Positions 4,009-59,976 of a DNA stretch of 64,000 nucleotides are shown here, one piece after another. Each line of letters starts with the position of its first letter. Position 1 is the first letter of the stretch. The position numbers were made by a program, and so were the translations under genes. The notes beneath the pieces were generated by a model, which was not told the DNA's origin, did no database searches, and saw nothing but the letters and a program-made list of their open reading frames with translations. This DNA comes from Clostridia bacterium (GTDB lineage Bacteria; Bacillota; Clostridia; Oscillospirales; CAG-272): contig JAFULR010000010.1 of assembly GCA_017483195.1 (NCBI GenBank), positions 12,673 through 76,672 on the forward strand. Reading direction: 5' to 3'.

Positions 4009-4379
4009 TTGCTTAGTTAGTTTGACTCTGTAACACGTTCTTTTTTGAAAAAAAGAACCAAAAAACTTTTATAAGCTATCGCGGCAAAATCTTGCGCAAA
4101 TTGTACCAACAAGTTGGTACTGAAAATTTTTCTCGTCGCCTCGAAAAATTGTAATTTGCTATACAGTACAAAGCCCATTTGTGTGAGCCGATGGCTACAC
4201 TTTACACAAGCAAATTAAAGATTTTTAAAGCGCCTGTTAAAATGCTTTAAAAATCGTTATGTGTTGCTCCGCAACACAATTTGCGCAGAGTTAATTTGTA
4301 AAAACGTTTTAAAGTTTTTTAGGGGTTATAGGGGGCAATTTTTCAAAAATGCCCCCTAATCCCAAGTCAAACTACTAAC

Positions 4380-5534
4380 TTATTTACAAATAAAATTATT
4401 AATAGCCGATAAAAGCTTATCGATATCCGATTTTGTGTTGAAAATACCGAACGATACTCTGACGGTGCCGGTGTTATCGGTTTTCAGTGCCTTGTGAGCG
4501 AGTGCGGTACAATGAAATCCGCCGCGAACACAGATATTTGCATCGTCGAGAGCGCGGCAGACAGCTTCTGCAGAGTGATTGTTGGTATTAAAGGACAGGG
4601 TGTTGCCCTCAAATTCGGGTAGATGGACGGTTGAGCCTCCAATTTCAAGTAAACCGTCGCGTAGATAACGGAAAAGCTCACGCTCGTGATCTCTTATGGC
4701 ATCGACCCCAATGCTTTTTACGAATTTCGCACCCTCGTAAAGACCCACTATTGCGGGCAGGGGCAGAGTTCCCACCTCATAGCGCTCGGGCGAAAGATCG
4801 GGCATGCCGGGGAGGAGTGAGTCAACACCGTTGCCGCCCTCGATGAGAGTATCAAGGATCTCTGCGGAATTTATCGCCACAAATCCTGCTCCTTGAACGC
4901 CGTAAAGCCCCTTGTGAGCGGGTGCGGAAAGGAAGTTGATATTCATTTTTTGCATATCAATATTGTAATGACCTATACTTTGAGCAACATCAAGCGCAAA
5001 TAAAACGTGAAAATTCTTGCACAATTCTCCGATTTCGTGGATTGGCAGAGAATAGGAGCAAATATTGGATTGATGATTGCAGATTATGAGTCGGGTGTTT
5101 CTTTTGATTTTACCTTCTATTTCAGTTATAAGCTCCTTTTCGCTTCTGTTCGGTTGCGAGAGCGCGGAAAAGACGTCATAGGTGATGATCCCATCGTGAG
5201 CAAGCTTTACTATCGGGCGCCACACGGCGTTATGCTCCATATCGCTGAGGATGACGTGATCGCCCGGGCGCAAAATTCCCTTGATTATGAGGTTCAGACC
5301 GTAGGTGCAGGACGGGACGAAGGCGATGCTTTCGGGGGATGGGGCGCCTATCAATGAGCTGAGCAGCTCGCGGCATTCATAGATCTTTTGGGCGGCAAAA
5401 AGGGACATTTTGTGTGATCCGCGTCCGGCATTTCCACAATAATCCCTAAGGCAACGCGCGACCTCGCGTGTGACCGCCGAGGGCTTTGGAAAGCTTGTGG
5501 CGGCATTGTCAAGGTAGCAAATTCTATCATTCAA
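4380..5534 (-). CDS. cysteine desulfurase family protein (class-V aminotransferase)
   Basis: PLP-dependent class-V fold (ICYLDNAATSFPKP..., ...SAPAHKGLYG...); likely true start is TTG at 5534 preceded by GGAGGA with an 8-nt spacer (the ORF-track start at 5648 is probably an over-extension). Confidence 0.8.
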   Translation of the reverse strand: MNDRICYLDNAATSFPKPSAVTREVARCLRDYCGNAGRGSHKMSLFAAQKIYECRELLSSLIGAPSPESIAFVPSCTYGLNLIIKGILRPGDHVILSDMEHNAVWRPIVKLAHDGIITYDVFSALSQPNRSEKELITEIEGKIKRNTRLIICNHQSNICSYSLPIHEIGELCKNFHVLFALDVAQSIGHYNIDMQKMNINFLSAPAHKGLYGVQGAGFVAINSAEILDTLIEGGNGVDSLLPGMPDLSPERYEVGTLPLPAIVGLYEGAKFVKSIGVDAIRDHERELFRYLRDGLLEIGGSTVHLPEFEGNTLSFNTNNHSAEAVCRALDDANICVRGGFHCTALAHKALKTDNTGTVRVSFGIFNTKSDIDKLLSAINNFICK

Positions 5535-9399: not shown

Positions 9400-10650
9400 A
9401 CCTCCTTGGGTGGTTGTTTTTATTGGTTTTTTGGGTTTTGTGTTTGGTGGAAGGTGATTTGGCTTTAGAACGGGAACGCCTTCCGTCCCGCTACGCCCCG
9501 CCCCCTCCCCTGCACCCCTCGCCGCCCCCGAGGGGAATGAGTGAGTGCGCTCTCGTAATGAGTGCGTAGCCGAAGGGTTTGCGGTGGGTGCCGATCCCTA
9601 CAAAAGTTAGTTTGGTTTTGGAGCGGACGCGCACAGCGCGCCCCTACGGGTTTGAGGAAAAAGCCGATTGTTTGTACAGACCGTGTTCCTCTCATCCACC
9701 TTGAAAACGCCGAAGGCTTTTTCTCAACCCCTTCCCCTCAGGGGAAGGCTTAGGTTAGTGCGCTTATGCACAAACTCGTAGGGGTCGGCGTCCTCGGCGA
9801 CCCGCGTTCGTGGGAAAGTAACTTTGCATTTGAAACTCTCCCACCACCACTTCGTGGTCCCCCTCCCTCGACAGAGGGAGGCAAGGGTTGTGCCGTTGCC
9901 CTCAACGTAGGGCGACTGTCTTGCTCCCGCCGGGTTGTAGGGAAAAGTACTTCACCTTTGGAAAGTCATAAAGACTCCTTCGTAGATCCCTGCGCGCCAA
10001 GGCGCTTGGTTTTGTCCGTTCCGCTTTGCTGCACTACCAAAACTTCGTCTCGCTGGCGCTCGCTCAGGATGACGTACAGACGGGGCGTTTGCGGTGGGCG
10101 GATGTTTGCTCGGGTCGTCGGGGACGTCGACCCCTACACAATATTAGTTTGCCTTGAAATCGGACGCGCACAGCGCGCCCCTACACGGGTAAGAGCGTCG
10201 CCGTGGGGTTTGTTTTTTGAATTTTGCATTTAGCGGGTGCACGGAGTGCCCCCCTACGAGAGCGAGAGCGTAGCCGAGGGGTTTGAGGTGGGCGGAGGGT
10301 TGCTCTGACGCGCACGAGAAACAAAGGTTAGTTGCCTACTTCGGCAAGAACGCGTCTTTGGTTGCGCCGGGGTTCCCCGAAGTGAGCAACGCGAGCTTTG
10401 GGGGTTCGCGGAAACGGAGTCGTAAGACGACGAGCGTTTTTCGACGGCGCGCCACTATTATTTTAGATAACCACAAAATTCCAAGCGCGGCGCGATGACG
10501 TATAGCCGTTTTGCTGGCGCGCCACTATTATTTGGGATAACCACAAAATTCTACGTGCGGCGAGGTGTCTATACAGGTTGGATATAGCTTTATAGTGTAT
10601 TAGTACGCAAAAAGCCGATATGGTATTAATATATCGGCTTTTATAGAATT
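9400..10650. repeat. mosaic array of GC-rich repeat modules (REP-like 24-mers, tandem 45-nt repeats)
   Basis: No coherent CDS; contains CGGACGCGCACAGCGCGCCCCTAC (x2); tandem GGCGCGCCACTATTATTTnnGATAACCACAAAATTC (x2); segments homologous to 12005..13120 in direct and inverted orientation. Confidence 0.8.
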
Positions 10651-11954
10651 ATTTATTGAAAAAGTCGGGAAGGGAGCTGATCTTGACCTCGGTCTCCTCG
10701 CGTGTGATGAGGTTTTTGACCTTTACGGTGCCGTTTTCAAGCTCGCTGCCGCCCATAATCACGATGTGGGTATAGCCCTCCTTGAAGGCATAGTCGATCT
10801 GCTTGCCGAATTTCTTTGTGCCAAGGTAGAGCGCGCTCGTTATTCCCGCCTCGCGAAGGGATGCGGTGAGTCCTATATATTCCTTATAGGGAACGTCGTT
10901 GAATCTTGCAACGAGCACCTTTGTGTTGCCCTCTGTAAAATCGGGGACGAGGTTATGTGTTACAAGGAAGTTTTCAAGCGTTACGTCGCCCATTCCGTAG
11001 CCAACGCCGCTGACCTTTGCGTTCTTTACGAAAAGTCCAACGAGGTTATCGTATCTGCCGCCGCCGAACATTGCGCGGTTGTTTTCGGGCGCTTCGTCGA
11101 ACACCTCAAAAACGGTGCCGGTATAGTAATCAAGTCCGCGGATGATTCCAAAATCGAATACGCAGTATTTTGCAAGTCCTGTTTCCTCAAGGAGTGCGAA
11201 AAGGTCGGAAAGCTCCTTGGCGCCAACGGAGTCGGGGCAGAGGGCTGTTGCTTCCTCGACGCTCATATTATAGAGCGCGTCGATCTTATTGATCTGCTCG
11301 TCACCCAAGCCGAGTGCCTTCATTTCCTTTTCATATACCTCGCGCGGGATTTTATTCTTTTTATCCACGATCTTTGAAACCTTCTTTGCGCCGTCGGCGT
11401 CGGAATTGCAGATCGCGGAGATAACGTCGTTGAAAAATCTGCGGTTATTGATATGCACCTTGAACATTGTTTCGTCCGCGCCGAAGCCGCGAAGAACGTT
11501 TATAGCGCTTTCGATGACGTCCATATCCGCCTCAAAGCCGTCGCATCCGAAAATATCAACGTTGAGCTGCCAGAATTCGCGAAGACGTCCGCGCTGGGGA
11601 GCCTCGCAACGGTACATATTGGGGATTGCAAACCATTTGAGGGGCATATTAAGGTCATAAATCTTTGCGGCAACCATACGCGCTACGCTTGGAGTCATTT
11701 CAGGTCTGATAGCAAGGTGGCGGTCGCCTCTGTCCATAAAGTTATAGGTCTGGGTGCTTGCAAGCTCCTCGCCGCTTTTTGCCGCGTATATATCGAAGGA
11801 TTCAAGCATGGGCGCGTTATATTCCTCATATGCGGATCTTTCAAGAACCTCGCGGATCTTTCCAAAGAACCAGTTGCGGAAGCGCATCTCTGCAGGGTAG
11901 AAATCTCTTGTGCCTTTATATGGCTGTGTTGATAAAAGTGTGTTGCTCAAAATA
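10649..11954 (-). CDS. hisS: histidine--tRNA ligase
   Basis: Class-II aaRS HisRS motifs (...YKGTRDFYP..., ...GGRYD..., anticodon-binding C-terminus); TTG start at 11954 with AGAGAGGA RBS. Confidence 0.9.
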
Positions 11955-11992
11955 TTTTCCTCTCTTAAAAGATAATAAACATATATACTCAG

Positions 11993-12030: not shown

Positions 12031-13120
12031 TGGGGAAATTTGTTTTATAGATAAACTGTGATTTATCGGGGAGTTTAATAAGTTAGATTAGGTTTGGAAG
12101 GGGAACTCCCTCACCGCCTGCGGCGGAGCTCCCTCCTCGGAAGGAGCCTACTGTTAGGCGAACCTTTGCGTGTATCCGTGATGTTTTAGGTGGGCGGATG
12201 TTTGCTCGGACGCGCACAGCGCGCCCCTACGAGTTTGTTCACCGCGCAAGATCCTTCGGTCGCGTTGCTCCCTCGAGGATGACGCGCGGGTTCCACGAAC
12301 GCAAGCATTCGGCGCGGAGTCGAGGTGTCGCACACAACCCTCGCCTCCCTCTGTCGAGGGAGGGGGACCACGAAGTGGTGGTGGGAGAGTTTCAAATGCA
12401 AAGTTACTTTTCTACGAACGCGGACGCGCAAAGCGCGCCCCTACGAAGGTTGGCGGTGTTTTATAGCAGTGCAGTAGCCATAAATCAATCAAAACGGCTA
12501 CGCACAGAATGCCGCCTTACAGTAGCCCTCTTCCGCAGAAGAGGGTGGCATTGAACTCACGAGCTTGCTCGTTAGTTCCGGTGACGGGTGTAGTTCCCCT
12601 TTTAAAAGAAAAGTTACTTTGCCTTTGGAAAGTCACAAAGACCCCTTCGTAGATCCCTGCACGTTGTGCAGGTTTTGTCCGTTCCGCTTTGCTTCACTAC
12701 CAAAACTTCGTCTCGCTGGCGCTCGCTCAGGATGACGTGTTGAGGTGGGGGGTGCGGTGGGCGGATGTTTGGCTCGGACGCGCACAAGAAATAAAGGTTA
12801 ATTGCCTACTTCAGCAAGAACGCGTTTTTGCTTGCAAAACGGAGTCGTAAGACGACGAGCGTTTTTCGATGGCGCGCCACTATTATTTTGGATAACCACA
12901 AAATTCTACGCGCGGCGAGGCGCCCCTACGGGTTTGATGAGAAAGCCGTTTGTGAGTGCTGGTGCCGTTCCCCTCATCCGTCAGGCATCCGCCTGCCACC
13001 TTCCCCTCAGGGGAAGGCTAAGTGCGCGATAAATCAAAATTTGAACGTTGGGATAAAAGCATATTGAAATAATCGGCTATTTGTGATATAATGGGATAAA
13101 TACGAATGATGGTTGAGGTG
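12005..13120. repeat. second mosaic array of the same repeat modules
   Basis: Shares about 170-nt and about 60-nt segments with 9400..10650 (some direct, some inverted); REP 24-mers at about 12213 and 12424. Confidence 0.8.
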
Positions 13121-52787: not shown

Positions 52788-54203
52788 ATGGCTAAAAACA
52801 CGAAAACTCCGGGCAGTCTTACCAAAAAGCATTGGTTCGGTTATATGTTCGGTGACTTTGGCGGATGCATGACATTCGCTCTTATGACCAGCACATTCTC
52901 TTTGTACTGCACCAAGCTCCTTGGTATCAACTCAACGATTATGGGTATTCTTACCGTTATCTGGACTATCTGGGATGCGGTGAATGACCCGATGATGGGT
53001 GCTTTGATGGACAAGGCTTTTGCCAAAAATCAGAACAAGCGCGGAAAATTCCGTCCCTGGATCCTTCGCGCGACACCCTTGCTCGCGATCACGGCTATCG
53101 CTCTTTGGACGGTTCCCACCTTCCTTGAAGGAATTCCGCTTCTCGTTGCGCTTTTCTCCTTCAAGATCCTTTACGAAGCATCCTATACGATGTTCAACAT
53201 CCCCATGGGCTCGCTTCTTTCCGCAATGTCCAAAAACGACGCTGAGCGCGCGTCCCTTTCTTCCGCTCGCGGAGTTGGTTCCATGTTCGGTAATATGATC
53301 CCCGGTATGATCGGCCCCGTTCTTTTGGGAATGTTCGGATCTGATAAATCCACTCCCTATATGATCACGGGTGTGGCTTGCGCTTTGGTTGGATTCGTTG
53401 TTTGCCTTCTTCACTATGCTCTTACAGAGGAGCGCGTTGTTGTAAATGAGCAGACAAATGCTGACGAGATCAAATTTACCGATATTCTTGACGTTGTTAA
53501 AAAGAACCGTGCCTTCGTGGCTCTTTGCATTCACGGCGTTTGCATCTGCACTATGCAGTATCTCTCGGAAAACATCAGCTTGTTTATGTTCGATGCCGTT
53601 TATCACGATCCTACGTATAAAACCATCGGTCAGGTGCTTTCCGCTCCCTTTATGGTGGGCTCAATGGCTATAGTTCCTTTCCTTTGCAAAAAGCTCGGAC
53701 TTGAAAAGATCATTCGTTACACCCTCCTCGCGGGTGGTGCTATCTGCGTTGGCTTGTTTGGCTTGCACGTTGTTATGGACGTTCATCCCCTTGTTCACGG
53801 TGTTGTTCTCGGTATCGGTACCGGAATGGCTATGGTATCCATTCAGATGCAGTGGGGTCTTGTCGGTGAGGCTATCGACTACAACGATTACGTTACCGGA
53901 AAGAGAACAGAGGGTTCAATTTACGGCACGTTCAATCTCTCCCGCCGTATCGGTCAGGCGATCGGTCTTGGATTCAGCTTCTTCGCTCTCGACTGGATAA
54001 AATACGATCCCGATGCCCTTGTTCAGACTGACGGAACAATCTTCGGATTTAAGGTCATCTGCGTGCTTATTCCTGCTCTCTGCATCGTTGGCTCCTGGGC
54101 TGCTTTCAAATTCGTTTGGAACATTACTCCCGAGATCCGCGCTAAGATGGCTGAGAGAAAGGCTACAGCTGTTGCTGCCACAGAAGCTCCCACAGAGGAA
54201 TAA
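52788..54203 (+). CDS. MFS/GPH-family glycoside:cation symporter
   Basis: 471 aa, 12 TM helices, GPH-family N-terminal signature. Confidence 0.75.
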   Translation: MAKNTKTPGSLTKKHWFGYMFGDFGGCMTFALMTSTFSLYCTKLLGINSTIMGILTVIWTIWDAVNDPMMGALMDKAFAKNQNKRGKFRPWILRATPLLAITAIALWTVPTFLEGIPLLVALFSFKILYEASYTMFNIPMGSLLSAMSKNDAERASLSSARGVGSMFGNMIPGMIGPVLLGMFGSDKSTPYMITGVACALVGFVVCLLHYALTEERVVVNEQTNADEIKFTDILDVVKKNRAFVALCIHGVCICTMQYLSENISLFMFDAVYHDPTYKTIGQVLSAPFMVGSMAIVPFLCKKLGLEKIIRYTLLAGGAICVGLFGLHVVMDVHPLVHGVVLGIGTGMAMVSIQMQWGLVGEAIDYNDYVTGKRTEGSIYGTFNLSRRIGQAIGLGFSFFALDWIKYDPDALVQTDGTIFGFKVICVLIPALCIVGSWAAFKFVWNITPEIRAKMAERKATAVAATEAPTEE

Positions 54204-54223
54204 TTTTTCGTTTTGATTTTATC

Positions 54224-54256
54224 ATCAAGTGGCACGCGCGTGCCACTTGAGTTTTA
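54224..54256 (+). terminator. rho-independent terminator
   Basis: CAAGTGGCACGCGCGTGCCACTTG hairpin followed by AGTTTT. Confidence 0.7.
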
Positions 54257-54560
54257 ATGAAGGTTTATTAAATTGAGATTTAGCGAGGGATTAGCACAAA
54301 CTCATTTTTAATTGAAGTAACCTTGTAGGGACCGGCGTCCTCGACGGTCCAATTCAAAAGCAAGGTAACTTTTGTTCAAAAATGTTGGATTTTGTTTGTG
54401 CGTAGCCGTGAAATTTGATGTTATTTCATCGTTATGGACCGTCGAGGACGCCGGTCCCTACAGGTTAGTACAGATTTTATTGGTATTGCCTCGAAGCTGA
54501 TTAAAGCTTTTTTGGTTACTTTTTTCTCGAAAAAAGTGACCGATAAATCAAAATTTGAAC
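54240..54560. repeat. about 320-nt palindrome-bearing repeat unit (copy 1, inverted relative to copies 2 and 3)
   Basis: Reverse complement of 55960..56350; contains 2 copies of GGGACCGGCGTCCTCGACGGTCC. Confidence 0.85.
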
Positions 54561-54571
54561 AGGAGATAGTT

Positions 54572-55930
54572 ATGGATAAATATATTGTTAAAACCCCTTG
54601 CGGTGAGGTGCGCGGCACGGACTGCCGTCTTGACGGAGTGATTGCGTTCAAGGGTATCCGATACGCGACCGCGGGCAGATGGGAATATCCCAAGCAGGTG
54701 ACTGCGTGGGACGGCATATATGATGCGACCGAATACGGTAATTGCGCTTATCAGCCGCGAGCATTTATGAACGAGGCAGAAAACCCCAGCAAGAAGTTCT
54801 ATTACAAGGAATTCAGAGAGGGAATTGAATACACCTATTCCGAGGATTGTCTTGTTCTGAATATCTGGAAGCCCGAAAATGCCAAGGATGGTGACAAGCT
54901 CCCCGTTCTTTTCTACATTCACGGTGGCGGATTTACGGGCGGATGCGCAAATGAAAAGCATTTTGATGATCCCATCTGGGCGCAGAAGGGAATTATAGCG
55001 GTGAGCATTAACTACCGCCTTGGCCCTCTTGGATTTTTGACTCTTCCCGAGCTTAAGGAAGAAGCAGGATGCACGGGAAACTACGGTCTTTACGACCAGC
55101 TTTGCGCTATGCACTGGGTAAGGGACAATATTTCCGCGTTTGGCGGCGATCCCGAAGCTATTACGATCATGGGTCAGAGCGCGGGCGCGATGAGTGTTCA
55201 GCAGCACTGTCTTTCACCGCTTTCAAAGGGACTTTTCCGCGGCGCGGTAATGAGCAGCGGCGGCGGTGTTCACAAGGTTCTTTCTGCGGATTCAGCTGAA
55301 AAGATGTACGATTTCTGGCACGCGGTAATGAAAAATTGCGGAGCGGAAAATCTTGAACAGTTCCGCGCGGTAGCTCCCGAAAAGCTTTTTGAGGCTTGGC
55401 AGAGAACACAGAAGGAGCTTAAAAAGCCTGCTTCGTGCTTTCCCTGCATTGACGGCGAGCTTGTGATCGGTACGGGTTGCGATCTTTTTGCAAAGGGAAA
55501 ACAGCACGATATACACTATATGGCGGGCTCAACGAGTCACGATATGATGCCTCCCTTCATCTATTCAATGTCACAAAAATGGTGTGAGGGTCAGAAAAAG
55601 AGCTCTTACGTTTGGTTCTTTGACCGTGTTTTGCCCGATGAAACCTATGGCGCTTGGCATTCGAGCGACCTTTGGTATTGGTTTGACACGCTTGATAACG
55701 GTTGGAGACCTTGGACAGAGAAGGACAGGGCGCTTGCTTCTCTTATGAGTGATTATCTTGTTAATTTTGTAAAAACGGGAAATCCCAACGGCGATGGTGC
55801 GCCTGAGTGGAAATCTGCTCAGGAGAGCAAAAGGGCACTTTTCCTTGGCGAAAACGAGCCGAAAATGTCCAAGCCCTCAAGCTTGAAGCTTTGGCACACA
55901 ATGATCACGAATAAAAACGTTGGATTTTGA
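54572..55930 (+). CDS. carboxylesterase type B (PnbA-like)
   Basis: COesterase-fold motifs (HGGGFTGG, GQSAGA); start MDKYIV with AGGAGA RBS. Confidence 0.85.
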   Translation: MDKYIVKTPCGEVRGTDCRLDGVIAFKGIRYATAGRWEYPKQVTAWDGIYDATEYGNCAYQPRAFMNEAENPSKKFYYKEFREGIEYTYSEDCLVLNIWKPENAKDGDKLPVLFYIHGGGFTGGCANEKHFDDPIWAQKGIIAVSINYRLGPLGFLTLPELKEEAGCTGNYGLYDQLCAMHWVRDNISAFGGDPEAITIMGQSAGAMSVQQHCLSPLSKGLFRGAVMSSGGGVHKVLSADSAEKMYDFWHAVMKNCGAENLEQFRAVAPEKLFEAWQRTQKELKKPASCFPCIDGELVIGTGCDLFAKGKQHDIHYMAGSTSHDMMPPFIYSMSQKWCEGQKKSSYVWFFDRVLPDETYGAWHSSDLWYWFDTLDNGWRPWTEKDRALASLMSDYLVNFVKTGNPNGDGAPEWKSAQESKRALFLGENEPKMSKPSSLKLWHTMITNKNVGF

Positions 55931-55959
55931 TTTATATTTGAAAACGGAAGGCGCGAGCC

Positions 55960-56350
55960 TTCCGTTTTTTTGTTTCAAATTTTGATTTATGGGTTACTTT
56001 TTTCGAGAAAAAAGTAACCAAAAAAGCTTTAATCAGCTTCGCGGCAATACCAATAAAATCTGTACTAACCTGTAGGGACCGGCGGTCTCACTGCGGTTCG
56101 GTCACGCTCAGGGAAAAACAACACACCGTGTTGTTTTTTAAGACCCTCGCGCCGCTTCGCTACCCCGACGGTCCATAACGATGAAATAACATCAAATTTC
56201 ACGGCACGCACAAACAAAATCCAACATTTTTGAACAAAAGTTACTTTGCTTTTGAATTGGACCGTCGGGGACGCCGGTCCCTACAAGGTTACTTCAATTA
56301 AAAATGAGTTTGTGCTAATCCCTCGCTAAATCCAGATTTATCTTGGGTTA
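55960..56350. repeat. about 390-nt repeat unit (copy 2)
   Basis: Inverted with respect to 54240..54560; direct with respect to 58280..58620. Confidence 0.85.
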
Positions 56351-56427
56351 TTATATATAAAGCCTTGACAAATCAAGGTTTTTGCTATAAAATGTATCTA
56401 TAATTATTTTGTTAAAGGAGAAAAACT

Positions 56428-58224
56428 ATGAAAGATAGAAAAGACATACCCGCAAAGTACAAGTGGGACTTATCCGTAATTTATGCGGACGATGCTGCTT
56501 TTAATGCCGATTACGCGAAGGCTGAGAAGCTTATAAAGGAGTTCCCCAAGCACGAAAAGACTATGACGAAGAGTGCAGAGGGACTTTACAACGTTCTTCG
56601 CGCAGAATGTGATATTGAGTCCATTATCGAAAAGCTCTGGAGCTATGCATCCCTCAATTTCTCGGTTGATTCCACAAACAATGCATTCCAGGCTCTTAAC
56701 GGACGCGTTCGCGCTCTTGCCGTTCAGGCAGGTGCTGCTTCCTGGTTCGTAAGTCCCCGTTTGCTCGCTCTTGACAACGACGTGGTTGAGGGCTGGTTCC
56801 GTGAGTATCCCGCTCTTGAGACCTTCCGCAGAACCGTTGACGGCATTATGAGAATGAAGCCCCATATGCTCAGCGACGAGGGTGAGCAGCTTATGTCCCG
56901 TCTTCAGGACGGCTTTGGCACGCACGGTGACATCAGAAGCATTTTTGCAAACAGTGATCTTCGCTTCGGAAAGATCAGAGACGAAGAGGGCAAGCTCGTT
57001 GAGCTTACGGACGTAAATTACGTTCCTTTCCTTATGAGCAAGGATCGCCGCGTGCGTCAGTCAGCATTCAGAAAGCTATATGAGACCTACGGTCAGTTCG
57101 GCAACACCTTTGCCACCATCTTCAACGCGATGGTTCGTGAAAGAGGAACGCTCGCAAAGGTTCGCGGATACAAGGATTCCATTACTGCGTCCACGTTCCA
57201 CGACGAGGTTACTCCCGAAATTTACAACAATCTTATAAACAGCGTTCACAAGGGACTTCCCGCGCTCTATGACTACTATGCTCTCAAGAGAGACGTTCTC
57301 GGCGTTCAGAAGCTCCATCTTTACGACGTTTACGCGCCCCTTATCGGTGAGCTTGACAGAGTTTACTCCTATGAAGAGGCGATCGAGGAGGTTCTTAAGA
57401 CCGTTGAGATCTACGGCGACGAGTATTACAATGCTCTTAAAGAGGGTCTTACAGAAAAGGGTTGGGTTGACGTTTACCCCTCAAGAGGTAAGAGAGGCGG
57501 CGCATTCAGCTCCGGTACTCCCGACACAGAGCCCTATATCCTTCTTAACTACACCGAGACACTTGATGACGTTTCCACACTCGCTCACGAGGCAGGACAC
57601 TCCATGCACACCTGGTTCTCAACTCACTACAATGAGCCCCATAATTCAAATTATACAATTTTCGTAGCCGAGGTTGCATCCACCGTTAACGAGCTTCTTC
57701 TGTTCCACAGAAAGCTCCGCGAATGCACCGACGACAATGAAAAGCTCTATATTCTCAATCAGCTTATGGAGACATACAAGGGCACGCTCTACCGCCAGAC
57801 GATGTTTGCAGAGTTTGAACGCGATATGCACGCGATGAGCGAAAAGGGAACTCCCCTTACCGCTGAGGTGGTTAACAAGCACTACTACAAGCTTGTTAAG
57901 AAGTACTTTGGCAAGGACGTTGCGGTTGACAAGCAGATCGCTATGGAGTGGATGAGAATTCCTCATTTCTATTCAAGCTTCTACGTTTACAAGTATGCAA
58001 CCTGCATTTCCGCCGCTTCCGCGATCGTTAAGAGAATTGAAAACGAGGGCGCGGCATACGTTGGTCAGTACATTGATTTCCTTAAGTGCGGCGGCTCCAA
58101 GTCTCCTCTTGACTCACTTTTGGTTGCGGGAATCGATATGAGAGATCCCGAGGTAGTTAACGGCGCGATCGAGGATTTCAAGAGCGCGGTTGCAGAGTTC
58201 AGAGAGATCTATAACAGAAAGTAA
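56428..58224 (+). CDS. pepF: oligoendopeptidase F (M3B)
   Basis: 598 aa, HEAGH zinc motif, PepF family N-terminus. Confidence 0.85.
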   Translation: MKDRKDIPAKYKWDLSVIYADDAAFNADYAKAEKLIKEFPKHEKTMTKSAEGLYNVLRAECDIESIIEKLWSYASLNFSVDSTNNAFQALNGRVRALAVQAGAASWFVSPRLLALDNDVVEGWFREYPALETFRRTVDGIMRMKPHMLSDEGEQLMSRLQDGFGTHGDIRSIFANSDLRFGKIRDEEGKLVELTDVNYVPFLMSKDRRVRQSAFRKLYETYGQFGNTFATIFNAMVRERGTLAKVRGYKDSITASTFHDEVTPEIYNNLINSVHKGLPALYDYYALKRDVLGVQKLHLYDVYAPLIGELDRVYSYEEAIEEVLKTVEIYGDEYYNALKEGLTEKGWVDVYPSRGKRGGAFSSGTPDTEPYILLNYTETLDDVSTLAHEAGHSMHTWFSTHYNEPHNSNYTIFVAEVASTVNELLLFHRKLRECTDDNEKLYILNQLMETYKGTLYRQTMFAEFERDMHAMSEKGTPLTAEVVNKHYYKLVKKYFGKDVAVDKQIAMEWMRIPHFYSSFYVYKYATCISAASAIVKRIENEGAAYVGQYIDFLKCGGSKSPLDSLLVAGIDMRDPEVVNGAIEDFKSAVAEFREIYNRK

Positions 58225-58279
58225 TAAAGCAACAAAATAAAGGAAGGGGAGCTTTTGAAAAAGCTCCCCTTTGCTTTTG

Positions 58280-58620
58280 GGTTCAAATTTTGATTTGTAG
58301 GTATGTTAGTTGAAACAAAACGGACAGTCGAGGACGCCTGTCCCTACGAGTTTGCAAATCATTTTTTAGTAAATTATAGCCATTTGTTGCTAATATGGCT
58401 ATTATCTTCGCAAAAAATTACCGCTGTCTGTTGTAGGGACCGGCGTCCCCGACGGTCCATAACGATGAAATGACATCAAATTTCACGGCTATGCACAAAC
58501 AAAATCCAACATTTTTGAACAAAAGTTACTTTGCTTTTGAATTGGACCGTCGAGGACGCCGGTCCCTACAAGGTTACTTCAATTAAAAATGAGTTTGTAC
58601 TAATCCCCCGCTAAATCCCA
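58280..58620. repeat. about 340-nt repeat unit (copy 3)
   Basis: About 95% identical over about 190 nt to copy 2; carries a variant palindrome GGACAGTCGAGGACGCCTGTCC. Confidence 0.85.
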
Positions 58621-58694
58621 ATTTATCTCTATCTATTGAATATTTTGATTGTCTGTGCTATAATTAATCCATCAAACACAAGGAGCGCGAGGAT

Positions 58695-59111
58695 ATGAAG
58701 GGTTACAACGTTATCGTGGTTTTTAGCAAGGAGGCTGACAGGATGCTGATGTGTAAGAGGGTGAAGGATCCTTACAAGGGACTTTCGAATTTTGTCGGCG
58801 GCAAGATAGAGGCGGGTGAGGACGGGCTTTGTGCCGCGTACCGCGAGCTTTTTGAGGAGACTGCGATAAAAAGGGAGGACATAAGGCTGACGCACCTGAT
58901 GGATTTTACCTATCATATGGCGCGCGAGTACGTTGAGGTTTACGTTGGCAGGCTTAATAAGGACGTTGAGATCAAGGGCGATGAAAATATCCTTTATTGG
59001 TCGGATCTCGATCACGATTTCTTTGATCCCGCCCTCTATGCAGGTGAGGGCAATATCGGACACATTATGATGCATATTGGGTTTGATAGGGAGAGGCTGT
59101 TGGAAATATGA
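58695..59111 (+). CDS. NUDIX hydrolase
   Basis: Nudix box GGKIEAGEDGLCAAYRELFEETA. Confidence 0.8.
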   Translation: MKGYNVIVVFSKEADRMLMCKRVKDPYKGLSNFVGGKIEAGEDGLCAAYRELFEETAIKREDIRLTHLMDFTYHMAREYVEVYVGRLNKDVEIKGDENILYWSDLDHDFFDPALYAGEGNIGHIMMHIGFDRERLLEI

Positions 59112-59638
59112 ATGATAATTTACCGAAAAGGAAGAATATACGGTTAAGAGAGCACGATTATTCCGCGCCTGGCGCGTATTTCATAACGATATGCACGAAA
59201 AATAAAGAAAAATTACTATGGAACGGTGAGCTCGATATACAAAATTTTGATTGGGAACTTGTAGGGGCGCGCTTTGCGCGTCCGCGGAATTTACCATTAT
59301 CAAAAATAGGTGTTGTAGTTGAAGAAAATTTGAACAAATGGAATGATACGTATGGAAATGCATATTTGTCACCGTATGTGATTATGCCAAATCATTTACA
59401 TATTATGGTTGTGATATTACCTGATGAAGAAGACGGACGCGCAAAGCGCGCCCCTACGGTTAGCACGATGATTAATCAATTCAAAGGAGCCGTAACGAAG
59501 CAATTAGGCGAAAATATATGGCAAAAATTGTTTTACGACCACATAATTCGAGATAAACACGATTATGAAGAAATATCGAAATATATTTACGAAAACCCAC
59601 TCAAATGGCAATTTGATGAATTGTATTTTGATGAATAA
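59108..59638 (+). CDS. REP-associated tyrosine transposase (RAYT, IS200-like TnpA)
   Basis: HxH motif (MPNHLHIMV) and catalytic-Tyr region (YDHIIRDKHDYEEISKYIYENPLKW); ORF contains two in-frame inverted copies of the genomic REP 24-mer. Confidence 0.7.
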   Translation: MNDNLPKRKNIRLREHDYSAPGAYFITICTKNKEKLLWNGELDIQNFDWELVGARFARPRNLPLSKIGVVVEENLNKWNDTYGNAYLSPYVIMPNHLHIMVVILPDEEDGRAKRAPTVSTMINQFKGAVTKQLGENIWQKLFYDHIIRDKHDYEEISKYIYENPLKWQFDELYFDE

Positions 59639-59652
59639 ATGTTGGGGGCATT

Positions 59653-59976
59653 ATGTTAGGAAAAATTGTAAGGGTCATAGTTGACAGGCCGATTGGCAGT
59701 CGTCATCCTAATTATGAGGATTTGGTTTATCCTGTGAATTACGGTTACGTTGAGGGTATTATTGCGCCCGATGGCGAGGAGCAGGACGTATATATTTTAG
59801 GGATCGACCGACCGATAAAGGAATACGTTGGCAAGGCCGTTGCTATCGTGCATCGCTTTGATGATATTGAGGATAAATGGGTGGTAGCTCCCGAGGGCGC
59901 GCATTACACAAGGGAAGAAATAATAGATCAAATTGAGTTTCAGGAAAAGTTTTTTAAATACGAGATCATAATGTAA
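59653..59976 (+). CDS. short inorganic-pyrophosphatase-like protein
   Basis: 107 aa; DRPIGSRHP...YPVNYGYVEG...DGEEQDVYILG resembles the family-I PPase core; much shorter than canonical Ppa. Confidence 0.35.
   Translation: MLGKIVRVIVDRPIGSRHPNYEDLVYPVNYGYVEGIIAPDGEEQDVYILGIDRPIKEYVGKAVAIVHRFDDIEDKWVVAPEGAHYTREEIIDQIEFQEKFFKYEIIM

Follow-up and report, generated by a model that had tools for sequence, protein, structure and literature searches.

Three MITE-like repeats with REPIN-type cores beside a RAYT-like gene in an uncultured gut Clostridia bacterium

Introduction

Systems made up of repetitive extragenic palindromes (REPs), their inverted doublets (REPINs) and REP-associated tyrosine transposases (RAYTs) are the best-studied long-lived, vertically inherited replicators of bacteria, and are known almost entirely from Proteobacteria. 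Here we analyse a 64,000-nucleotide stretch of a Clostridia bacterium (Oscillospirales; contig JAFULR010000010.1, positions 12,673 to 76,672), which we call the window. It contains three related non-coding repeats (copies 1, 2 and 3), of which copies 1 and 2 are inverted around a carboxylesterase gene and copies 2 and 3 are direct around the oligoendopeptidase F gene pepF. An original prediction made from the letters of the window alone had drawn attention to these repeats, but missed the GTAG-headed REP-type hairpins that they contain and a RAYT-like gene about 480 bp further downstream. In our view the likely explanation is that each of the three repeats is an independent copy of a small, non-autonomous element, similar to a miniature transposable element with inverted repeats (MITE), which has a REPIN-type doublet as its core and is moved by a RAYT-type enzyme.

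The likeness to the REP/REPIN and RAYT systems of Proteobacteria (E. coli, Pseudomonas; PMC2817692, PMC3116915, PMC3733652) lies in the unit itself, i.e. an imperfect, G+C-rich hairpin of 20-26 nt headed by GTAG, in the pairing of units in inverted orientation with several hairpin types per genome, and in the extragenic, clustered setting beside a syntenic Y1/HUH gene that has TnpA_REP as its closest solved structure. The host differs, being an uncultured gut clostridium (Oscillospirales-like), a group for which the key papers describe no REP populations; Group 1 RAYTs do occur in Clostridia, in association with low-abundance 16-mers (Bertels 2017, PMC5581495). The locus is of interest as a comparable system in uncultured gut Clostridia that departs from the described ones in three ways: the doublet is packaged inside a larger unit with its own conserved termini, an identical 26-mer is common to many species and families, and two hairpins lie within the reading frame of the RAYT-like enzyme, whose protein is under the RAYT cut-off, instead of or besides flanking it.

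Three further systems bear comparison. The bacterial interspersed mosaic elements (BIMEs) of E. coli are likewise intergenic mosaics of palindromic units in alternating orientation, with few conserved linkers and variation between strains, as seen here in the arrays at 9400-10600 and 12053-13046 and in the module swaps of strain contigs L009-L014; they differ in sequence and host, and the arrays here exceed 1 kb, hold many unrelated palindrome families and have specific end motifs. Palindrome-associated transposable elements (PATEs), which derive from IS200/IS605 elements, are similarly short and non-coding, have subterminal hairpins, do not duplicate their target, leave empty sites that are seamless, and are presumed to use a Y1 transposase in trans. 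However, no IS200/IS605 TnpA or TnpB with matching ends was found, the head here is of the GTAG REP type, and the ends are near-identical inverted repeats where those of IS200/IS605 are asymmetric. In TIRtrons (PMC3733652) a RAYT-related gene, TIRYT, is associated with repeats that have long inverted termini and form moderately abundant families. Here, in contrast, the termini bound small elements and not the transposase gene, and the TIRtron motif GGGGWSAS is unmatched, the end being CGGGGAGTT.

Results

Comparison of the repeats with each other and with other genomes supports three real, separate and discrete non-coding elements of mobile type, MITE-like in appearance and each situated in an intergenic gap (Table 1). 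As originally predicted, three related units are present at about the places given, copies 1 and 2 are reverse complements of each other (three blocks of 135, 43 and 116 nt at 96, 98 and 96% identity, respectively), and copy 3 is direct with respect to copy 2 at about 95% identity (95.6% across 182 nt); copies 1 and 3 match as reverse complements over 194 nt at 96%. The esterase and pepF reading frames are also where they had been placed between the copies. The boundaries had been right only in outline: 54225-54250 belongs to an upstream terminator and not to the repeat, and the refined limits are those in Table 1. The 116-nt left module is found in copies 1 and 2 but not in copy 3, which has a third, variant REP unit in its place. 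Copy 3 consists of an A-end and a head-inward doublet of the type seen in strain contig L009, joined at the REP unit 58433-58458 to the unit of copies 1 and 2, i.e. REP, 85 nt, REP, tail and B-end. Since the break in homology at 58458 falls inside a REP unit, copy 3 is a hybrid of two element types joined at the REP.

The element ends are conserved, the A-end reading (G)TTCAAATTTTGATTTAT and the B-end GMTAAATCCCAATTTAT(CT), with a self-complementary core, AAATYNNRATTT, common to both. They can be written as terminal inverted repeats (ATAAATTGGGATTTAKCGGGGAG / CTCCCTATAAATCAAAATTT) that enclose short non-coding elements of 250-370 bp with sharp boundaries; at six sites in three genomes, sequence conservation breaks off abruptly at the A- and B-ends and the flanks are unrelated. 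The suggestion that the units are MITE-like, one of three put forward at the outset, is borne out by these conserved ends, sharp boundaries and unrelated flanks. The short modules that had been recognised both in the units and in the arrays flanking hisS are likewise real and non-random: AAAGTTACTTTGC has eight matches at no more than one mismatch versus 0.14 expected, and ATAAATCAAAATTTGAAC has four versus 0.03 expected, one of them at 13029 beside hisS.

Table 1. Features of the three copies and their surroundings (positions in the window).
Feature	Position	Strand	Description
MFS transporter gene	52788-54203		upstream of copy 1
Intrinsic-terminator-like hairpin of MFS gene	54225-54250	+	11-bp stem then GTTTTAAT; outside the repeat
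Copy 1	54268-54560	-	complete element: B-end 54268-54283; tail; REP doublet; 116-nt module; A-end 54543-54560
REP unit, copy 1	54325-54350	+	GTAGGGACCGGCGTCCTCGACGGTCC; unpaired GTAG head and imperfect hairpin
Inverted partner REP unit, copy 1	54436-54461	-	forms REPIN-like doublet with the 54325 unit and 85-nt spacer
28-nt palindrome, copy 1	54514-54541		inside the 116-nt module
Carboxylesterase gene	54572-55930	+	452 aa; PF00135, E = 6.5e-93; bystander
Esterase terminator	55940-55969	+	directly before copy 2
Copy 2	55973-56341	+	A-end 55973-55990; 116-nt module; split REP; spacer; intact REP; tail; B-end 56326-56341
Split left REP unit, copy 2	56072-56084 and 56163-74		interrupted by the 78-nt insertion
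Nested insertion, 78 nt	56085-56162	+	in loop of left REP unit of copy 2; own hairpin then T-run
Intact REP unit, copy 2	56259-56284	-	1 mismatch, in loop
pepF promoter-like site	56365-56393	+	11/12 consensus positions; other-strain homology resumes at 56348, just after copy 2
Oligoendopeptidase F gene (pepF)	56428-58224	+	bystander
pepF terminator	58243-58272	+	directly before copy 3
Copy 3	58281-58626	+	hybrid element; 5' flank of NUDIX-RAYT operon
Variant REP unit, copy 3	58322-58347	-	GTAGGGACAGGCGTCCTCGACTGTCC; C>A and G>T mutually compensating in stem
REP unit, copy 3	58433-58458	+	homology with simpler element of other strains stops inside, at 58458
REP unit, copy 3	58544-58569	-	inverted partner of 58433-58458
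Promoter-like site, TG-extended	58636-58664	+	for NUDIX-RAYT-ORF107 operon
RAYT-like Y1/HUH transposase gene	59108-59638	+	176 aa; ~480 bp downstream of copy 3
In-frame type-A GTAG hairpin 1	59261-59284	+	GTAGGGGCGCGCTTTGCGCGTCCG; encodes VGARFARP
In-frame type-A GTAG hairpin 2	59434-59457	-	inverted, after HUH motif; encodes GRAKRAPT

The core of the element is a doublet of two inverted 26-mers (GTAGGGACCGGCGTCCYCGACGGTCC) with 85 nt between them or, equivalently, of 28-nt arms (TGTAGGGACCGGCGTCCYCGACGGTCCA) with 83 nt between them; in copy 1 these arms are 100% complementary. At up to three mismatches the 26-mer occurs at six sites in the window, where none is expected (two in copy 1, one in copy 2 and three in copy 3), and all six begin with GTAG. 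As single-stranded DNA a unit is predicted to fold with its GTAG unpaired, followed by a stem of 6 bp, one G/A mismatch, two further base pairs and a loop of 4 nt (....((((((.((....)).)))))); -9.8 kcal/mol), and the 26-mers have the form that characterises a REP, i.e. an imperfect palindrome of 20-40 nt with a terminal GTAG or GT[AG]G. The 141-nt doublet has a predicted folding energy of -45.9 kcal/mol (z = -11.2) and gives a 28-bp hairpin on either strand (z = -11 to -13). Variants that preserve the stem by compensation are found in the window (GGACAG..CTGTCC) and in other genomes, where the inner pair changes from CG to GC. What had been described as a 23-nt perfect palindrome present twice in each unit, GGGACCGGCGTCCTCGACGGTCC, is neither: its reverse complement differs, the sequence being an imperfect hairpin after an unpaired GTAG, and its exact matches number only three, of which two are in copy 1 and one in copy 3. 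Read on its own strand, every 26-mer also has a TAG stop codon in one of the frames.

Across the window there are about 15 clear GTAGGG hairpins, all of them within five intergenic arrays or the RAYT-like gene, and three of the five arrays lie no more than 5 kb from that gene. This count is confined to the G+C-rich GTAGGG class because the background of a generic search for GTAG followed by any hairpin was high (32 matches vs 12-26 in shuffled sequences).

The candidate enzyme was recognised in several ways. When Y1/HUH proteins of other genomes whose genes carry the 26-mer were used as tblastn queries, they matched the window at 59108-59638 with 38-40% identity (E = 1e-34). The protein has the HUH motif MPNHLHI and the C-terminal sequence IWQKLFYDHIIR...YIYENP, and together with MPNHLHI the segment IWQKLFYDHIIRDKHDYEEISKYIYENP conforms to the RAYT-type signature WQxxFxxHxIR...YIxxNP. 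Residues H96, H98, W138, Q139, H145, R148, Y159, N163 and P164 are invariant in 33 homologues and align to residues of TnpA_REP by way of one homologue, L125, which matches PDB 4ER8 by sequence. When an AlphaFold2 model of the protein (pLDDT 80.6) was compared with the PDB using Foldseek, the first-ranked structure was 4ER8, E. coli TnpA_REP bound to a REP hairpin (E = 2.2e-7, TM 0.56-0.59), and ranks 2-30 were IS200/IS605 TnpA structures, including the IS608 and ISDra2 transposases. We regard the open reading frame (ORF) at 59108-59638 as a divergent RAYT-like transposase with a TnpA_REP-like predicted fold.

The RAYT-like gene belongs to a NUDIX-RAYT-ORF107 operon (58695-59976), in which its start overlaps the NUDIX stop (ATGA); downstream of it come an ORF of 107 aa and then a terminator. 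Synteny of the operon extends to contigs L145 and L147-L149, with homologues 80% and 72% identical. The distance from the end of copy 3 to the first gene of the operon is 69 bp, the right half of the copy is the conserved 5' flank of the operon, and in L147-L149 the tail and B-end are kept upstream of the operon. A REPIN doublet therefore flanks the RAYT locus at copy 3; this flanking doublet is of the hairpin type that we call B, and the hairpins inside the gene are of type A. The G+C content of the gene is 0.39-0.40, against 0.48-0.52 for its neighbours. The product of ORF107 weakly resembles inorganic pyrophosphatase.

An exact search of the GTDB species genomes placed the 26-mer in at least 120 contig stretches, all from metagenome-assembled genomes (MAGs) of gut or rumen Clostridia and mostly with unrelated flanks; hosts among the matches listed include Faecousia, Acutalibacteraceae, Oscillospiraceae, Ruminococcus and others. 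Among the 140 matches listed, 39 (28%) lie less than 200 nt from a contig end, a pile-up of the kind expected of a multi-copy repeat, and 38 fall in stop-free frames of at least 150 codons. Close pairs (<250 nt) in other genomes are head-outward in 12 of 14 cases among the matches listed. The complete element of about 250 bp, with the layout end, tail, REP, 85-86 nt, REP and end, has one occurrence in L069, a MAG from sheep gut, and two in the related species L145, all at 93-96% identity. Its inverted doublet with the 85-nt spacer is present in all three copies (the left unit of copy 2 being split) and at three sites in two other genomes, again at 93-96% identity, and the unrelated flanks suggest that the REPIN may replicate as a unit. 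The doublet spacer, AAATCCAACATTTTTGAACAAAAG, had no matches in the JGI metagenomes. In other genomes, doublets (L074:1730-1867, L113) keep the same 86-nt spacing between 26-mers in a comparison with the window and L069; in L074, the only spacer read, its sequence is unrelated to that of the window.

Variation at the locus itself was followed most closely in L145. Here identity to the window is 94-96% for the element and only 77-83% for the genes around it. The copy 1 site is occupied by the element, whereas the copy 2 site has only TTCAAATTTTGATTTATCT; the spacer between esterase and pepF is 154 nt long compared with 498 nt in the window, and the empty site reads as the left flank joined straight to the right flank. 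Downstream of pepF, L145 has an element with the same ends and a different cargo. Contigs L009-L015, which encode an identical PepF protein, lose homology to the window exactly at 56348 and 58458 and have other modules in the gaps. The order and orientation of the MFS, esterase and pepF genes are constant in every contig that spans them (L001/L007, L003, L010 and L145), and in no contig examined was the esterase inverted or relocated.

The RAYT-like gene itself contains two type-A GTAG hairpins in frame (24 nt, 100% complementary), which bracket the HUH codons. The same type recurs extragenically in the arrays around hisS (window positions 9647, 10184, 12230 and 12444). Both hairpins are present in 56 of the 61 homologous ORFs examined (46 distinct sequences), and the pair, head-outward and about 190 nt apart, is also found in L033, L048, L058, L061, L072, L145, L147, L150 and L151-L230. 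Across 120 homologous proteins the two loop peptides change jointly, as reverse-complement DNA would demand e.g. VGAHRVRP/GRTRCAPT, VGEHCVLP/GSTQCSPT and VGANCVRP/GRTQFAPT. Thirty hairpin alleles were 98.8% paired, with 45 double-change cells vs 11.4 in shuffles, although the level of pairing follows in part from selection because the alleles had been pre-filtered for at least six pairs. The stems co-vary, and the peptides that they encode vary freely. A locus's own hairpin type occurs in the flanks of 11 of 38 loci, several of which are probably from the same species (18 copies vs 0.02 expected from unrelated alleles). At a protein identity of only 55%, type-B genes still have 25-26 of the 26 nt in each of the two hairpins. 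In the hairpin-less homologue L125 the loop sequences are unrelated, and the second loop of E. coli TnpA_REP is shorter.

Our tentative proposal is that in this clade of Clostridia the RAYT-like gene carries two in-frame cognate REP hairpins bracketing the HUH motif. With two head-outward cognate hairpins the gene segment would therefore itself be a REPIN-like substrate. The enzyme could recognise its own gene or mRNA, giving autoregulation or an on/off switch by self-excision; hairpin specificity and the hairpin population could co-evolve by gene conversion between the gene and extragenic copies; and the extragenic doublets could have originated from the gene. An in-frame hairpin pair of this kind is not described in Nunvar 2010, Di Nocera 2013 or Bertels 2017, and a literature search with the sequence strings gave only unrelated primer matches; this covers a limited literature and is not proof of novelty. 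As a separate matter, derivation of the doublet spacer from the RAYT gene was considered and rejected, since the in-frame reading meets a stop and, by eye, there is no resemblance to the segment between the hairpins. L033 has, beside a type-B RAYT-like gene, a complete 26-mer that leads into a tandem array (together 4310-4450) with a period of 27 nt, in which its 3' part alternates with a 9-nt linker (CGGCGTCCCCGACGGTCC GTTTGTAAT ...).

Each copy occupies the non-essential stretch from an upstream terminator to the next promoter or ribosome-binding site, and therefore fills a single terminator-to-promoter gap. At copy 1 the MFS terminator hairpin is also present at the orthologous place in L145, and the ribosome-binding site of the esterase directly follows the A-end of the copy (region 54561-54575), again with the same layout in L145. 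In the interval from the MFS terminator to the esterase ATG (54572) we found no promoter-like site; the esterase is therefore probably read through copy 1, with the 28-bp doublet hairpin forming part of its mRNA. ORFs that run across the units (e.g. 54434-55930 and 54421-54717) were rejected as genes, because they are extensions of real genes or antisense to them and the esterase of public contigs is the 452-aa form starting at 54572.

Discussion

How REPIN-cored elements of this kind might move can be pictured on the model of the IS200/IS605 enzymes and of TnpA_REP from E. coli. The units would fold into hairpins on single-stranded DNA, a Y1/HUH tyrosine transposase of the RAYT family would recognise the hairpin together with its GTAG head, and the strand would be cut and rejoined, with doublets being copied or moved preferentially to nearby sites. 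Recombination between units of different elements would then produce mosaic arrays that vary between strains. On this account, the inverted arrangement around the esterase and the direct one around pepF arose incidentally from three insertions that took place separately: the copies are separate and lie in gene gaps beside a RAYT-like gene, so they do not make up a transposon carrying the esterase. This account draws on the anatomy of the copies, the covariation of the hairpins, the boundaries, the distribution across species, the element's presence or absence at orthologous sites, and the enzyme's homology and fold, all of which are shown here; we infer catalysis, the identity of the RAYT that works on hairpins of this type and possible effects on expression.

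Several observations weigh against a RAYT-driven, REPIN-cored element. The match of the protein to NCBIfam NF047646 (REP_Tyr_transpos; E = 9e-17) scores 61.3 bits, under the cut-off of 80, and that to Pfam PF01797 (Y1_Tnp) scores 16.7 bits, under the cut-off of 23; with both scores under the curated cut-offs, the protein is filed as RAYT-like and not as an equivalog. The RAYT-like gene of the window has type-A hairpins (GTAGGGGCGCGC...), whereas the three copies have the type-B 26-mer. RAYT-like genes that carry the exact type-B 26-mer exist in other genomes and none was found for this organism, so that type-B hairpins here may be served by this same gene across types, by a paralogue from beyond the window, or by no enzyme at all. 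Movement is inferred from comparison, and no target-site duplication is present at six sites in three genomes. The A- and B-ends resemble terminal inverted repeats, which are more typical of MITEs mobilised by DDE transposases, and accompany only 12 of the 120 26-mer loci listed in other genomes (about 10%). Finally, the sequences compared are mostly short-read metagenome contigs, which may be chimeric at exactly such repeats.

The ends raise the question of whether the repeats could instead be classical MITEs, moved in trans by a DDE transposase through their terminal inverted repeats (AAATTNNGATTTAKCGGGGAG) with the REP doublet as cargo or as a later insertion. The inverted repeats, imperfect over about 24 nt and with sharp boundaries, would suit such an element, as would the occurrence of the same ends around quite different cargo downstream of pepF in L145 and in the 12053-13046 array, and the 'solo' end left at the empty site of L145. 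We nevertheless regard it as unlikely: the absence of a target-site duplication at all six sites counts against it, no insertion sequence with such ends is present in the window or in any locus compared, and the 293-bp element has no match in the PLSDB plasmids or INPHARED phages. It is also the 26-mer, and not the sparsely distributed ends, that is the widely conserved unit and the one tied to RAYT-like genes.

Host-encoded cis-regulatory or RNA elements, i.e. hairpins that stabilise or terminate mRNA, or sites for host proteins, maintained by selection, would account for the invariable position between terminator and promoter or ribosome-binding site, for conservation far above that of the flanking genes, and for the G-T pairs that favour one strand in some stems; should the MFS promoter drive the esterase, copy 1 is moreover necessarily part of the transcript. 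As the whole explanation this is rather improbable. The units come and go and swap modules at orthologous sites, other species have the same unit in unrelated surroundings, there is no close Rfam family, and most units lie downstream of strong terminators. Nor would such a function compete with mobility: the REPs of E. coli have secondary roles in stabilising or terminating mRNA and as binding sites, and in known REP systems mobility and these roles coexist.

A composite transposon or invertible segment, in which copies 1 and 2 mobilise or flip the esterase and pepF can be deleted or duplicated between the direct copies 2 and 3, is highly improbable, even though repeats of 290-370 bp at 96% identity in both orientations are adequate RecA-dependent substrates: the MFS-esterase-pepF order is constant in all spanning contigs and in L145, where the esterase stays in place without copy 2, the segment holds no transposase or recombinase and the copies encode nothing, and the G+C content of the esterase is that of its neighbours. 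The greater identity of the element (93-96%) than of the flanks (77-83%), together with an empty site in L145 at which synteny is kept, argues against both a composite transposon and an inversion switch. The composite-transposon-like layout originally suggested is therefore not supported; of the suggestion that the units are recombination substrates, the part that survives is that they are sites of variation (copy 2 is absent in L145 and strain contigs have different modules), and mobilisation or inversion of the esterase does not.

The neighbourhoods that might be cited in favour of rearrangement are those of L009, L011 and L012, which have an identical PepF protein and different neighbours. 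In these contigs pepF is 98.5-99% identical at the nucleotide level and is followed by three different genes, L009 and L012 have no esterase upstream, and the far flank of L009 matches window positions 4094-4261 at only 88%. Either the elements are places of genuine recombination or transfer, or the assemblies are chimeric. The differences come from k141 short-read assemblies, which break or may mis-join at repeats, and we have for that reason not counted them as rearrangement.

Structured RNA genes, the remaining suggestion, were rejected because an Rfam scan of the whole window at gathering thresholds and an E-value scan of 54150-58750 gave only miRNA-precursor-like models, none near its gathering score, and because no promoter-like site that could drive them precedes the units on either strand and the hairpins fold equally on both strands. 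Integron attC sites and CRISPR were set aside in the same way (no GTTRRRY core, integrase or regularly spaced array in the window).

With the repeats taken as REPIN-cored mobile elements, the units explain breaks and possible mis-joins in short-read assemblies, spurious ORF calls across intergenic arrays and apparent differences in neighbourhood between strains. The part most worth following up is the pair of hairpins embedded in the transposase gene; if these are functional, they make it possible to test directly how a match is maintained between a domesticated transposase and the population of its substrates.

A few smaller observations concern the units and arrays. The 78-nt insertion in copy 2 folds at -17.5 kcal/mol (z = -3.6), and a left end resembling it (TCTCACTGCGGYTCGGTCACGCTC) abuts a half-REP in an unrelated MAG (L036, about 4700-4800, minus strand), which suggests, from these two sequences, a second small element that may target REP loops. 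Nine IMG/VR contigs (L136-L144, predicted viral) carry the exact 26-mer, twice as an inverted pair, possibly as a route of spread between species or as mis-binned host DNA. The hisS gene (10650-11960, minus strand) is flanked on both sides by non-coding mosaics of more than 1 kb (9400-10600 and 12053-13046) that contain palindromic module families, namely type-A and GGGTCG-type GTAG hairpins and cccttcccctcaggggaaggc, ccctccctcgacagagggagg and 'gctcaggatgacg' modules; the left array is without recognisable ends, and the right array (1 kb) is bounded by the same A- and B-ends as the three copies.

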